From a virus, in IMG/VR virus record IMGVR_UViG_3300017917_004390, positions 1 through 64,000 of that record: a stretch of 64,000 bases of DNA. One strand, given 5' to 3'. Positions 54,972 to 59,108 of this stretch are shown here, in pieces. Both the position numbers and the translations under genes were made by a program. The notes under the pieces were generated by a model. It saw nothing but the letters and a program-made list of their open reading frames with translations, searched no databases and had not been told where the DNA came from. Numbering within the stretch: position 1 is the first letter of the stretch; each line of letters begins with the position of its first letter.

Positions 54972-56531
54972 ATGGTTATAAAAACTGAAACTAAATATTC
55001 TACCGTTTTAGACATATTAAAGACTTCAATTAAACAGGGAGTATCTTATAAAGATATTCTAAATGAAAGAGAACTAAGCCCTTCTTATATAAATGATTAT
55101 ATATATGATATTAAAAGAGGTAAAGTTAAATATTTAAATGAAGATGAAAAAAATGAAGTAGTTAAATTATTCGAGTCTCAAATTCCAATTCCAAAAACTT
55201 CTAATAATAAAAGTTTAGATTTAAATAATGAAGTTGATTTTGAAAAAAGAAGTAAATGCTGGCAAGAAAGAGATGAAGATGGTAAGATACTTCGTTATCA
55301 TTATGAAATTCATGTCCGTGATGAAAAACCACTTGAAGGTTATTTAACTAGACAAGAGTATGATACTATAGTTGAGAACTATCCATTCTTAACTCGGAAT
55401 ACTGTTTCACAAATGTTTCCAACTTTAACATTTGTGGATTTTAAAAGAATTATTAGATGTTTTAATATTACAAAAGATGTTGTTTTTTCACCTCACACAT
55501 TAGAAGAAAATCCACCAGAAAAAATTGCTGAATTTCATCTAAAAGCTAAAGCTAAATCAGCTTATAGAAAAATAACTGAAGAAAGAGGTGCTTTTAATGA
55601 GAAAGTTATTAAAGATTTAGTGAGAGAAAATCTTGATTTAAAAGATATTAGAACATTTATTGATGATACAGTAAATAAATATATTAAAACTGGTTCATCA
55701 GTTAAATTAACTAGAAAGCATCCAGAAATTAAAACTGGTGATATTGGTTATTTATTTTATAGTGATATTCACTATGGTAAAAAATATGAAAGCCCGATTT
55801 TTGGTAGGGGATGTGATAAAGATATATTACATGATAGAATGATTCAAATTGCTGATGAAACAATCAAATATGTAGAATTTAATCAAATTAAAAAATTAAA
55901 AAGTTTTTTTGCTGGTGATATTGTTGAAAGTATTTTAGAAGAAGGTATGCATCCCGGACATTTTAAAGAAATGGACCTAAGGGGTGATGAACAAATTATG
56001 TTTGCTATTGATTCACAAATCAATTTTATACAAAGAATACTTGATAATACAACAATACCTCTTGAATTTACATTTATTGGTGGTAATCACGATAGAATAG
56101 GTGATGATAGACAAAAAGATAAAGCTAGAACAGCATCTTTATTAATATTCAAATTAATTAAAAAACATTTTCAAGATAACGAAAGAGTTGTTATTAATGT
56201 AGGTACAAATACACTAACAAAAGATAATGAAAATGGCTTATGCGTATTAATGTTTCATGGTGATAATAGTCTAATTAAAAAACAACCACATGAATTAGTT
56301 AATCTACATGGGATTGGTACAACAGGATATCATTTAGTAGTGTCAGGCCATTTCCATAGTGGAGATATTAAACAAAAAACTGGTACTAATTATATGAGTA
56401 TATCTTTACCATCGGTTTGTAGTACAGATAATTTTGTATTAAATGAATTAGGTAACAATGACCTACCCGGATTTGTTATAGGAAAGAAACAAAACTCAGG
56501 TTTTAGTTTTAATTATAACATCCTTCATTAA
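54972..56531 (+). CDS. Calcineurin-like metallophosphoesterase with N-terminal extension
   Basis: SDIHYG, GDIVE, GNHDR, FHGD and GHFH motifs all present. Confidence 0.85.
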   Translation: MVIKTETKYSTVLDILKTSIKQGVSYKDILNERELSPSYINDYIYDIKRGKVKYLNEDEKNEVVKLFESQIPIPKTSNNKSLDLNNEVDFEKRSKCWQERDEDGKILRYHYEIHVRDEKPLEGYLTRQEYDTIVENYPFLTRNTVSQMFPTLTFVDFKRIIRCFNITKDVVFSPHTLEENPPEKIAEFHLKAKAKSAYRKITEERGAFNEKVIKDLVRENLDLKDIRTFIDDTVNKYIKTGSSVKLTRKHPEIKTGDIGYLFYSDIHYGKKYESPIFGRGCDKDILHDRMIQIADETIKYVEFNQIKKLKSFFAGDIVESILEEGMHPGHFKEMDLRGDEQIMFAIDSQINFIQRILDNTTIPLEFTFIGGNHDRIGDDRQKDKARTASLLIFKLIKKHFQDNERVVINVGTNTLTKDNENGLCVLMFHGDNSLIKKQPHELVNLHGIGTTGYHLVVSGHFHSGDIKQKTGTNYMSISLPSVCSTDNFVLNELGNNDLPGFVIGKKQNSGFSFNYNILH

Positions 56532-56534
56532 TAT

Positions 56535-56981
56535 ATGAATTATACACAAGAACAGAAAGACCTATTACTTGATAAATTATTTGATGGAGTTGTTTGTCTC
56601 AATATTTATCGTAGAATTGATATTATACATAAAAATAATAAAATTTCATGGTACAAACCAAAATATAATTTTTTTTGGTTAAATTACCATCAAATATGGC
56701 AATTTTTTGAAAACAAAAATGGTTCTAATTACCAAGAAATCAAAGACTTAACTGAGGGTATCCTGAAAGACCTTATAAAACAAAAGGAACTCACAACTGC
56801 ACCCGACCGGACCTTTTGGCATATAGACCTGAAAGACCTTATAAAACAAAAGGAACTCACAACAACCGAACCATTTGTACACTCCGCTCAACTCCTGAAA
56901 GACCTTATAAAACAAAAGGAACTCACAACGCTTCCTGAATTACTTTTTGATTTTCTTAACCTGAAATACCTTACAATATGA
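56535..56981 (+). CDS. Repeat-terminated small protein, paralog 1 (reads through 3 repeats and 3 spacers)
   Basis: MNYTQEQKDLLLDKLFDGV core; LKDLIKQKELT occurs three times, separated by spacer-encoded peptides. Confidence 0.8.
   Translation: MNYTQEQKDLLLDKLFDGVVCLNIYRRIDIIHKNNKISWYKPKYNFFWLNYHQIWQFFENKNGSNYQEIKDLTEGILKDLIKQKELTTAPDRTFWHIDLKDLIKQKELTTTEPFVHSAQLLKDLIKQKELTTLPELLFDFLNLKYLTI
56762..56976. CRISPR. CRISPR mini-array inside paralog 1: three identical 36-bp repeats, three 30-bp spacers and a truncated terminal repeat
   Basis: CCTGAAAGACCTTATAAAACAAAAGGAACTCACAAC at 56762, 56828 and 56894; unique spacers 56798-56827, 56864-56893, 56930-56959; partial repeat 56960-56976. Confidence 0.88.
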
Positions 56982-57265
56982 ATTATACCCAAGAACAGAA
57001 ACAATTATTACTCGATAATCTCTTTGATGGGGTTGTTTATTTTAATATTTTTGAAGATATCAATATTATTCATAGAAATCGTTTTTTTTCAATATATCAA
57101 CTAAAATATAACAAGTTTTGGTTAAGTCAACCTAACATTTGGAGATTTTTTGAAAATGAAAAAAGAAATAACTTCTATCAAATCATTGAATTAACACAAA
57201 ATATCCTGAAAGACCTTACAAAACAAAAAAATATTAGAACTGAAAACTTACGACTGAAAATTTAG
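56978..57265 (+). CDS. Repeat-terminated small protein, paralog 2
   Basis: Same core; degenerate repeat at 57205-57240 encodes LKDLTKQKNIR. Confidence 0.8.
   Translation: MNYTQEQKQLLLDNLFDGVVYFNIFEDINIIHRNRFFSIYQLKYNKFWLSQPNIWRFFENEKRNNFYQIIELTQNILKDLTKQKNIRTENLRLKI
57205..57240. repeat. Degenerate copy of the 36-bp CRISPR-like repeat
   Basis: CCTGAAAGACCTTACAAAACAAAAAAATATTAGAAC. Confidence 0.7.
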
Positions 57266-57295
57266 AACAATAGTTCTAATACTCATAATTAATAT

Positions 57296-57649
57296 ATGAC
57301 CTACACACAAGAACAAAAAGACCTCTTACTTGATAAACTCTTTGATGGAGTAATTTGTCTGGATATCTATAATAATATTGAAATTATACATAAAAATAGT
57401 AATATATCATATTATATATTTGGAAGTAATACTTTTAGATTAAGTTGGAGTAATATTTGGAAATTTTTTGAGAATGAAAAAAATGATAATCAACAAGAAA
57501 TTGAAGAATTAACATCTAATATCTTAATAGACCTTACAAAACGAGAGGGAATTAAAACACATCAACGCTATACTTCAATAGAATGGAGCGAATATCGACT
57601 TAAAAATCCGAATATTACAATTCAAGAAATAATTTTTCGTTATTTTTAA
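57296..57649 (+). CDS. Repeat-terminated small protein, paralog 3
   Basis: Same core; degenerate repeat at 57523-57558. Confidence 0.8.
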   Translation: MTYTQEQKDLLLDKLFDGVICLDIYNNIEIIHKNSNISYYIFGSNTFRLSWSNIWKFFENEKNDNQQEIEELTSNILIDLTKREGIKTHQRYTSIEWSEYRLKNPNITIQEIIFRYF

Positions 57650-57707
57650 GACCATGTTTTTCGAAAAGAAACGAATAATATCTATTACCCTAATAGACCT
57701 TACAAAA
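57523..57707. repeat. Degenerate repeat (57523-57558) and partial repeat (57689-57707)
   Basis: CTTAATAGACCTTACAAAACGAGAGGGAATTAAAAC; CCTAATAGACCTTACAAAA just before the next ATG. Confidence 0.6.
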
Positions 57708-57716
57708 TAATATTAT

Positions 57717-58040
57717 ATGAAATACACACAAGAACAAAAAGACCTACTACTTGACCGTCTCTTTGATGGAGTTGTTTTTTTTAATATATATGATACAATT
57801 CGTATTACACATATAAATAATAAAAAATCATGGTACAACCCAAAAACTAGTCTATTTTGGTTAAGCTATAGTAATATTTGGCATTTTTTTGAGAATGAAA
57901 ATATATATAATTTTCAAGAAATCAAATACTTAATTGAGCCTATCCTGAGAGACACTACAGAACGAAAGGAACTCACAACTAACGCTTGGATGGATATTGC
58001 TCGATGCTGTCTAAAAAGAAAGGAACTTACAAAACAATAA
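57717..58040 (+). CDS. Repeat-terminated small protein, paralog 4
   Basis: Same core; repeat encodes LRDTTERKELT. Confidence 0.8.
   Translation: MKYTQEQKDLLLDRLFDGVVFFNIYDTIRITHINNKKSWYNPKTSLFWLSYSNIWHFFENENIYNFQEIKYLIEPILRDTTERKELTTNAWMDIARCCLKRKELTKQ
57944..58037. CRISPR. Repeat-spacer-degenerate repeat unit in paralog 4
   Basis: CCTGAGAGACACTACAGAACGAAAGGAACTCACAAC (57944-57979), 30-bp spacer TAACGCTTGGATGGATATTGCTCGATGCTG (57980-58009), scrambled repeat remnant. Confidence 0.7.
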
Positions 58041-58043
58041 AAT

Positions 58044-58325
58044 ATGACTTACACACAAGAACAAAAAGAACTACTACTTGACAAACTCTTTGATGGAGTT
58101 GTTTGTATGGATATCTACTATGATATTGATATTATTCATAGAAGTTATGGGTTATCATACTACAACCCAAAAACTAATGAATTTGTGTTAAGCTATAATT
58201 ATATTTGGAAGTTTTTTGAGAATGAAAATAGAGATAATTACTATGAAATCGAAGAATTAATATCTAGTATCCTGAGAGACACTACAGAACGAAAGGAACT
58301 TATAACAAATTATTGGCGGGGCTGA
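58044..58325 (+). CDS. Repeat-terminated small protein, paralog 5
   Basis: Same core; the stop codon lies inside the spacer. Confidence 0.8.
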   Translation: MTYTQEQKELLLDKLFDGVVCMDIYYDIDIIHRSYGLSYYNPKTNEFVLSYNYIWKFFENENRDNYYEIEELISSILRDTTERKELITNYWRG

Positions 58326-58372
58326 AATCGAAGACCACTGAGAGACCTTACAAAACAAAAGGAACTCACAAC
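58271..58372. CRISPR. Repeat-spacer-repeat unit in and after paralog 5
   Basis: 36-bp repeats at 58271-58306 and 58337-58372 flank an exactly 30-bp spacer AAATTATTGGCGGGGCTGAAATCGAAGACC. Confidence 0.82.
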
Positions 58373-58415: not shown

Positions 58416-59108
58416 ATGTTTAAAACAGTTGAATTAGATAAATATGTAACGATTGATATTGAGTGCGTTACTGGATATAAAAATATATATGAATTAGAAA
58501 GAATTAAACCTAATTTGTATAAAATTTTTCAAAAAAGGTTTGAAAAAGATATAAATGAGGTTTTAAAAAATGTTGATTCGGTGCTTGAAGCTGAAGAAAA
58601 AGTATATAAAGAAAAAGCTGTTTTTATGGCTGAATTTTCAAAAATAATTTGTATTTGTGTTGCTGGTTATTTAAATGGGGAAATACAAACTAAATCATTT
58701 TTAGGTAATGAAAAAGATATTATTAGCAAATTTTATACTTTTATTGCTGGTAAACCTAGAATTATTTGTGGACATAACATAGTTAAATTTGATATACCTT
58801 TTATTAATAAAAGAGCTTATCTTTATAATATTCAGATACCTTCTATACTTCAGATTCATGATAAAAAACCTTGGGAATTATCTGCTAGTATAAGAGATAC
58901 ACAAACTTTATGGGCATTTGGTGGAATGAATAATATATCACTTGAACTTCTATGTGAATTTTTAGGTATTGAAACATCAAAAGATGATATTGATGGTTCC
59001 CAAGTCGATTCAATATACTATATATATAATGATATAGATAGAATTGTACAATATTGTACAAAAGACGTAACTTCAAATTTATTGGTAATCAAAAGATTAT
59101 GCAATTAG
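58416..59108 (+). CDS. DEDD 3'-5' exonuclease (PolB/DnaQ-like exonuclease domain)
   Basis: ExoI 'IDIEC', ExoII 'GHNIVKFDIPFI', ExoIII 'YCTKDV'. Confidence 0.9.
   Translation: MFKTVELDKYVTIDIECVTGYKNIYELERIKPNLYKIFQKRFEKDINEVLKNVDSVLEAEEKVYKEKAVFMAEFSKIICICVAGYLNGEIQTKSFLGNEKDIISKFYTFIAGKPRIICGHNIVKFDIPFINKRAYLYNIQIPSILQIHDKKPWELSASIRDTQTLWAFGGMNNISLELLCEFLGIETSKDDIDGSQVDSIYYIYNDIDRIVQYCTKDVTSNLLVIKRLCN

Follow-up and report, generated by a model that had tools for sequence, protein, structure and literature searches.

CRISPR-like repeats and GC-rich 30-nt inserts at the ends of tandem genes in an AT-rich phage

The DNA analysed here (the window) is the first 64 kb of the 93,192-nucleotide (nt) IMG/VR virus record IMGVR_UViG_3300017917_004390, whose CheckV completeness is ~30%. 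It contains five tandem paralogous genes on the plus strand, u1 to u5, which encode proteins of 93-148 amino acids (aa) that are 50-60% identical. A 36-nt element encodes the last 12-13 codons of each paralog, and in several of the genes it is followed by a 30-nt insert and a further copy of the element, in the manner of a CRISPR array. The initial annotation, made from the sequence alone, proposed that these inserts are genuine spacers captured from a foreign genome rather than products of intragenic duplication, and that they should identify both target and host. All features below are on the plus strand.

Repeats and inserts in five tandem genes

Gene u1 (148 aa, 56535-56981) is one open frame that spans three repeats and three spacers. 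Its gene-side ("leader-proximal") repeat, r1 (56762-56797), encodes the conserved carboxyl-terminal motif of the protein, and serves here as the reference copy. Then follow spacer s1 (56798-56827; 16 G+C out of 30), repeat r2 (56828-56863), spacer s2 (56864-56893; 14 G+C), repeat r3 (56894-56929), and spacer s3 (56930-56959; 8 G+C, a phage-like composition). Both r2 and r3 match r1 at 36/36 positions, and the period is exactly 66 nt (36 + 30). The series ends in a truncated fourth copy, r4 (56960-56977), which retains only the gene-side half and abuts the start of u2. The TGA that stops u1 and the ATG that starts u2 overlap (ATGA, 56978-56981), so that the 148-aa frame through three spacers ends precisely where u2 starts. 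This overlap suggests translational coupling of the two genes.

A second 66-nt unit is found at u5 (93 aa, 58044-58325). Its in-gene repeat (58271-58306; 78% like r1) is followed by spacer s5 (58307-58336; 14/30 G+C), within which the stop codon lies, and then, 30 nt beyond the in-gene copy and outside any gene, by a second full repeat (58337-58372) that matches r1 at 33/35 positions. Gene u4 (107 aa, 57717-58040) contains a repeat 84% like r1 (57944-57979), spacer s4 (57980-58009; 14/30 G+C), and a repeat remnant comprising the far half only (58019-58033). The right edge of s4 is assumed, because this next repeat lacks its first 14 nt. Recounting reproduced exactly the coordinates and G+C counts first given for the five spacers (16, 14, 8, 14, and 14 per 30).

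The layout is that of CRISPR arrays in general: near-identical direct repeats within the usual 23-55 nt (here 36 nt), separated by unique spacers of constant length (spacing 66 nt). A conserved sequence, the 3' end of the gene, flanks the first repeat, and a truncated repeat (56960-56977) lies at the opposite end. The three u1 repeats are 100% identical, whereas the gene bodies differ by 25-35%; this points to recent gain of units.

The remaining two genes carry repeats that have decayed along with the material behind them, and their inserts are AT-rich or decayed only. In u2 (95 aa, 56978-57265), the repeat (57205-57240) is 81% like r1 with a decayed far half, and there is no GC-rich insert. 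(A perfect hairpin, with a 7-bp stem and a 4-nt loop, occupies 57262-57279 just past the u2 stop codon, where other units have a spacer.) In u3 (117 aa, 57296-57649), the repeat (57523-57558) is 73% like r1; downstream are decayed repeat and insert material and then a half repeat (57689-57708). The five genes lie between an exonuclease-like gene (54972-56531) and a gene for a DnaQ-type 3'-5' exonuclease (58416-59108). No tRNA genes were found in the window, and a scan for sigma-70 promoters gave results no better than shuffled sequence.

Kinship of the repeat and composition of the inserts

Related cellular arrays were found by a tandem search for the terminal 12-mer of the phage repeat. This search led to an array in Empedobacter falsenii with 69 copies of a 47-nt repeat and 30-nt spacers, adjoining cas2 and a type II cas1 (TIGR03639, 310 bits). 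The same search of metagenomes gave 21 loci, 14 of which are arrays with repeats of 46-50 nt and periods of 76-80 nt. Read on the minus strand, the phage repeat begins with the 12 nt that also open the repeats of these 14 metagenomic arrays and of the E. falsenii array. The phage consensus has its first 15 nt in common with these cellular repeats; the u4 and u5a variants have 16 (u4 reads GTTGTGAGTTCCTTTC here). Over its whole length, the phage repeat agrees with the best cellular repeat at 24/36 positions (z = 5, with 0 of 2000 shuffles as good), among loci preselected through the 12-mer. (The E. falsenii array, L005:1796-2091, also has two identical neighbouring spacers and one abnormally short spacer of 18 nt; it was because of the latter that the first tandem search caught it.)

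The plus strand of the phage repeat shows block-wise similarity to CRISPR-2, a 36-nt repeat of Flavobacterium columnare given in Table 4 of PMC5395568 (z = 3.1; 21 of 2000 shuffles reach the score). A pattern search of 151 sampled Flavobacteriales genomes gave no array with the phage repeat. The type II-C and VI-B repeats of F. columnare are both 36 bp long, and have in common a leader-distal GTTGT motif (Hoikkala et al. 2021, PMC8092290). The identical minus-strand start, the alignment with the F. columnare repeat, and these shared features place the phage element, as judged from sequence, in the Bacteroidota type II-C/VI-B repeat group.

Codon usage suggests that the repeat is constrained as nucleic acid. 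It contains the codons CTG and CTC (each 0.7% of the leucine codons in the phage), GAC (12% of aspartate codons), and AAG (10% of lysine codons). These rare codons are kept in u1, u4, and u5, whose bodies have diverged by 25-35% and have a G+C content at third codon positions of 0.15-0.24. Such retention indicates constraint at the nucleotide level, unlike a purely peptide-level constraint.

Polarity is likewise similar to that of the cellular arrays. The E. falsenii array has a perfect repeat abutting the leader, and its truncated repeat at the opposite end, away from cas2 and the leader. In the phage, truncated copies lie at the gene-distal end, and the perfect copy is the one within the gene. 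The conserved 3' part of the gene thus stands in the leader's place. With this orientation, the AT-rich s3 occupies the oldest position in u1, and the GC-rich s1 and s2 occupy the newest.

The phage record as a whole is 25.6% GC, in agreement with the first estimate of about one-quarter, and only 1.8% of its 30-nt windows contain at least 14 G+C. The binomial chance that at least four of five spacers reach this count is 5e-8 for a source of 25.6% GC, 1e-3 for 35%, 0.03 for 40%, and 0.5 for 50%. The set of spacers becomes ordinary only for a source near 45-50% GC. Spacers in cellular arrays of this repeat group average 10-12.5 G+C, and 16.5% of them have at least 14; comparison with these (p about 0.003) indicates that the phage set is GC-rich even by that standard.

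By eye, no match to the spacers had been noted elsewhere in the window, and this holds across 93 kb: the best matches elsewhere in the record are 10-13 nt, at noise level. Nor do the spacers resemble one another: local alignment scores, taken pair by pair, are the same as for shuffled sequences. Compared in register, s4 and s5 are identical at 13/30 positions and the other pairs at 4-10 (p about 0.04 without correction), which hints weakly that s4 and s5 may not be fully independent, or may have a shared history. The variable parts show no template-like similarity, which rules out a diversity-generating retroelement.

Several candidate sources were examined and set aside. Comparison with ribosomal RNA (one large-subunit and four small-subunit Flavobacteriales loci) gave at best two short matches, of 12/13 nt in s2 and of 12/12 nt in s4. 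The latter covers the opening 12 nt of s4 (57980-57991), which are the exact complement of a conserved stretch of 16S rRNA in two Flavobacteriales genomes (L040 and L041; E = 0.018 in a small set). Neither the s4 nor the s2 match extends further, and both are treated as chance. Spacer s3 matches Vibrio megaplasmids at 28/30 positions with one gap (E = 0.1), in an AT-rich intergenic stretch, and this too was judged probably to be chance. (The match, at L037:4001-4029 in the V. vulnificus FORC_036 megaplasmid and in several megaplasmids, ends at the spacer borders and lies upstream of a radical SAM gene.) None of the 257 spacers of cellular arrays with this repeat group matches the phage, and the phage spacers had no Rfam match with E under 1.9.

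For the host, only a broad placement is possible, at the level of Bacteroidota, from the Flavobacteriales-type repeat group and from the lack of Shine-Dalgarno usage. A motif resembling the Shine-Dalgarno sequence precedes 3 of 77 long open reading frames (ORFs), no more often than it precedes random positions; scarcity of such motifs is typical of Bacteroidota. The closest match of the phage helicase is in an uncultured huge phage, at 26% identity.

Probable CRISPR-type insertion and its alternatives

Array geometry, repeat homology, polarity, the identity of the new repeats, unit-wise replacement of tails, and foreign composition all support CRISPR-type insertion. On this evidence, the 30-nt segments are probably foreign DNA that was inserted unit by unit in the way that CRISPR arrays acquire spacers. 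The initial proposal of genuine foreign spacers stands in part: the inserts are discrete and foreign-looking, and do not represent an intragenic duplication (by repeat homology, 66-nt period, unrelated tails, and the richness of homologues' tails in GC codons), whereas a source genome was not found. Composition alone provides a robust, database-free sign of foreign inserts; by itself it led to neither target nor host.

A number of results weigh against this reading, and are considered here along with the alternatives on which they bear. Exact 20-mers of s1, s2, s4, and s5 are absent from IMG/VR. Blastn searches with the spacers, with matches accepted up to E = 10, returned noise only from 50,697 phage and 72,556 plasmid records, and a BLAST search with s1-r2-s2 against 121 sampled Bacteroidia genomes gave at best E = 0.003 per genome, mostly through the AT-rich repeat. 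(This set includes one unpublished genome, G494, on which no claim depends.) The spacers thus did not lead to target and host as had been expected: all protospacer searches were negative, and the host is placed at the level of Bacteroidota only. Searches with Pfam and PADLOC identified no Cas family among the large ORFs of the 93 kb, which represent ~30% of the genome. Nor did these 93 kb contain a Cas9 match or an anti-repeat outside the units, although a host copy could serve.

The want of a target for any spacer in the databases searched, and of cas genes in 93 kb, would be in keeping with a relic: a fragment of a host array, captured once, fused to the gene, and multiplied by unequal crossing-over, with spacers that have no role and are decaying towards AT. 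The decayed repeats and AT-rich inserts of units 2 and 3, together with the AT-rich s3, fit such a history as well. Nevertheless it is improbable, for it leaves three identical repeats among gene bodies that differ so widely, unrelated tails on closely related bodies, and preservation of the rare codons in the repeat. Moreover, the tail encoded by s5 is conserved, and the design persists in distant homologues that have a different repeat.

A second set of adverse results concerns the repeat itself. The exact repeat does not occur in 185,579 species genomes; searches of those genomes, of the metagenome collection, and of 401 + 151 sampled Flavobacteriales genomes gave no cellular array built on this 36-nt repeat. 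The second (gene-side) half is dissimilar to II-C repeats; the terminus of GTTG...CAAC type is present at one end only (the CAAC end on the plus strand); and folding is weak on both strands, with an internal stem of 4 bp. Conceivably, then, the element has nothing to do with CRISPR, and is instead the recombination or regulatory site of a gene-cassette system that resembles II-C/VI-B repeats by chance. The absence of an identical cellular repeat and the single motif terminus would suit this explanation, as would a small protein that has no known fold or family. It is nonetheless very improbable, given that the repeat begins with exactly the same 15-16 nt as the repeats of a widespread array family, that spacer length (30 nt) and polarity of the truncated repeat agree with that family as well, that the geometry is exactly 36 + 30, and that the inserts are unique and foreign in composition.

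The third set concerns the encoded protein, for which no family was found in Pfam, PHROG, or PADLOC. AlphaFold predicts a confident small α/β domain (predicted local distance difference test, pLDDT, 87), with the first tail residues in the final β-strand. Foldseek gave no match with this domain, the best VIA Z score was 5.1, and the ESM Atlas gave no usable match. Scanning IMG/VR and the metagenome collection for a protein pattern returned no relatives. When 5.8 billion proteins were searched with a profile, 24 homologues came to light on three Joint Genome Institute contigs (87, 67, and 47 kb), with about a dozen copies on each of the 87- and 67-kb contigs. All have a common end motif, followed by a differing tail of 3-12 residues; in some, a second motif follows after 9-10 residues. 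Tails can be unrelated even where the gene bodies are 77-78% identical. Glycine, alanine, arginine, and proline make up 27% of tail residues as compared with 8% of body residues, and so foreign composition holds across the family. Among 1.84 billion representatives, a further profile search picked out more distant members (P0040, P0033, P0037, and P0030), in which the motif sequence is different. These retain the layout of 12 aa, 10 variable aa, and 12 aa, and some have two, three, or five domain copies per frame.

Three features of this family suggest that the peptide matters. Tryptophan constitutes 5.8% of translated tail residues as compared with 1.6% expected (3.5-fold, p = 1e-4). The s5-encoded tail of u5, NYWRG followed by a stop, recurs on another contig in the homologue P0012, whose body is only 60% identical; conservation of spacer peptides in homologues, which had been named as evidence against genuine spacers, is thus seen for this one tail. 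Finally, the 760 aa of P0030 form a single frame, uninterrupted by a stop, in which there are five domain copies and the 12-aa motif occurs nine times with a variable 10-aa insert.

Accordingly, the inserts might matter as protein: a CRISPR-type or other unit-wise process would supply random tails or loops of 10 residues, the peptide would be under selection, and the RNA would be irrelevant. The 66-nt period preserves the reading frame, and units 1 and 4 read through their spacers; the placement of the first tail residues in the predicted β-strand, and retention of the motif K-[EG]-[LV]-T-[TP] as peptide in distant relatives, also argue for this explanation. Against it, 13 of ~25 close-family tails reach a stop within 10 codons, as expected for random sequence, and very rare codons are kept in the repeat, a constraint that is not on the peptide alone. 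In unit 5, the second repeat is better conserved than the copy within the gene, even though no frame includes it. The long frame of P0030 may reflect ascertainment, or be needed only for expression of downstream domains. Selection on the peptide as the whole explanation is therefore rather unlikely, though less so than either of the other two alternatives.

Proposed mechanism and known systems

The favoured explanation, CRISPR-type insertion, can be drawn as a sequence of steps. DNA of ~45-50% GC would enter unit by unit, every unit bringing a new copy of the 36-nt repeat, beside the 3'-terminal repeat of a small phage gene that has been amplified in tandem. The VI-B array of F. columnare lacks cas1 and cas2, and is filled in trans by the II-C integrase (PMC8092290). 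By analogy with these 36-nt arrays, the inserting enzyme presumably is a host type II Cas1-Cas2 acting in trans, with the phage repeat as putative substrate of both integrase and effector. VI-B transcription runs from the leader, and II-C transcription runs towards it (PMC8092290). Units in the phage might correspondingly be transcribed in one of two ways: together with the gene, starting on the side of the leader (VI-B polarity), or on the antisense strand in the direction of the gene (II-C polarity). The resulting RNAs, similar to CRISPR RNAs (crRNAs), could occupy or redirect a host effector, whether to act as a decoy or as part of a conflict with some other element. Where phage and host are both AT-rich, a GC-rich guide would serve safely as a non-self decoy. 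Translation into the spacer would be a side effect, partly shaped by selection.

Confidence differs among the parts of this proposal. An RNA-level role for the units is tentative, and somewhat doubtful at present. The entire explanation (genuine spacers, insertion in trans, and crRNA-like RNAs) has about an even chance of being correct. A more speculative version, in which large Bacteroidota phages let the CRISPR integrase write 30-nt stretches of foreign DNA into the 3' ends of multicopy genes, with selection upon the resulting tails, would make spacer acquisition a diversifier of protein; this is possible but unlikely. Each acquisition would then create both a new crRNA-like unit and a new 10-residue tail.

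If the inserts are real acquisitions, the phage, itself without cas genes, offers its own genes as an integration site for a CRISPR integrase of the host, and each unit is both a possible guide RNA and a part of a protein. This raises the question of whether CRISPR adaptation can diversify proteins.

The VI-B (Cas13b) arrays of Flavobacteriales resemble the phage units in their 36-nt repeats, 30-nt spacers, and lack of adjoining cas1 and cas2. The leader-distal GTTGT motif, known from II-C as well, is present in the phage, as is block similarity to the F. columnare CRISPR-2 repeat, and transcription from the leader side would in the phage equal transcription of the gene. Unlike VI-B arrays, the units are borne by a phage in which no cas13b was seen, and the repeat lacks a GTTG end on the crRNA-sense strand. 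Furthermore, the phage "leader" is the coding 3' end of a gene, the first repeat is translated, and there are many units of one to three spacers rather than one array.

The II-C arrays of Bacteroidota (E. falsenii Q1655, locus L005; metagenome loci L015-L034) have the same 30-nt spacers and the same 15-16-nt repeat start, and their truncated repeat is leader-distal, as in the phage. However, the cellular repeats are 46-50 nt long, with a shared 16-mer start and an ACAAC end, whereas the phage repeat is 36 nt long with a different second half. Neither cas9 nor an anti-repeat of a trans-activating crRNA was found in the 93 kb of the phage, and the phage spacers are richer in G+C.

Virus-borne mini-CRISPR arrays without cas genes have been described as free-standing elements with spacers that match related viruses (Medvedeva et al. 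2019, PMC6858448). The phage units have in common with these their location in a viral genome, their one to three spacers, the absence of cas genes, and a repeat related to host arrays; they differ in being fused in frame to a multicopy gene, and in that no viral target was found in IMG/VR or the phage collection. A free-standing example with the same II-C repeat group is present in another virus (IMG/VR UViG_2894445195; 53.9 kb, 28% GC). This mini-array without cas genes (L038:3238-3460) has three 45-nt repeats and two 30-nt spacers (15/30 and 8/30 G+C), and is located after an antirepressor-like gene and before a terminator-like hairpin, rather than fused in frame to a gene.

Viruses also encode mimics of CRISPR repeats, known for other CRISPR types and for Cas9: the solitary repeat units termed Racr (PMC10651486), the crRNA-like Cracr arrays (bioRxiv 10.1101/2024.10.29.618823), and small CRISPR-associated RNAs (scaRNAs) and single-guide RNAs directed against Cas9 (bioRxiv 10.64898/2026.06.01.729453). 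Like the phage units, these are phage-encoded repeats of host type, some with short guides or multiplexed; the known mimics occupy or redirect the host effector. Racr, Cracr, and scaRNA elements are non-coding, are often next to acr or aca genes, and have guides that match cas promoters; the repeat described here is coding, and its guides are full-length and GC-rich.

Viral mini-arrays without cas genes and repeat mimics are therefore already known. In the literature searched, no description was found of an in-frame fusion between a mini-array and a multicopy gene in which the end of the gene acts as leader, and this fusion is the new aspect. If the favoured explanation is correct, viral mini-arrays and repeat-mimic RNAs extend to the II-C and VI-B systems of Bacteroidota.

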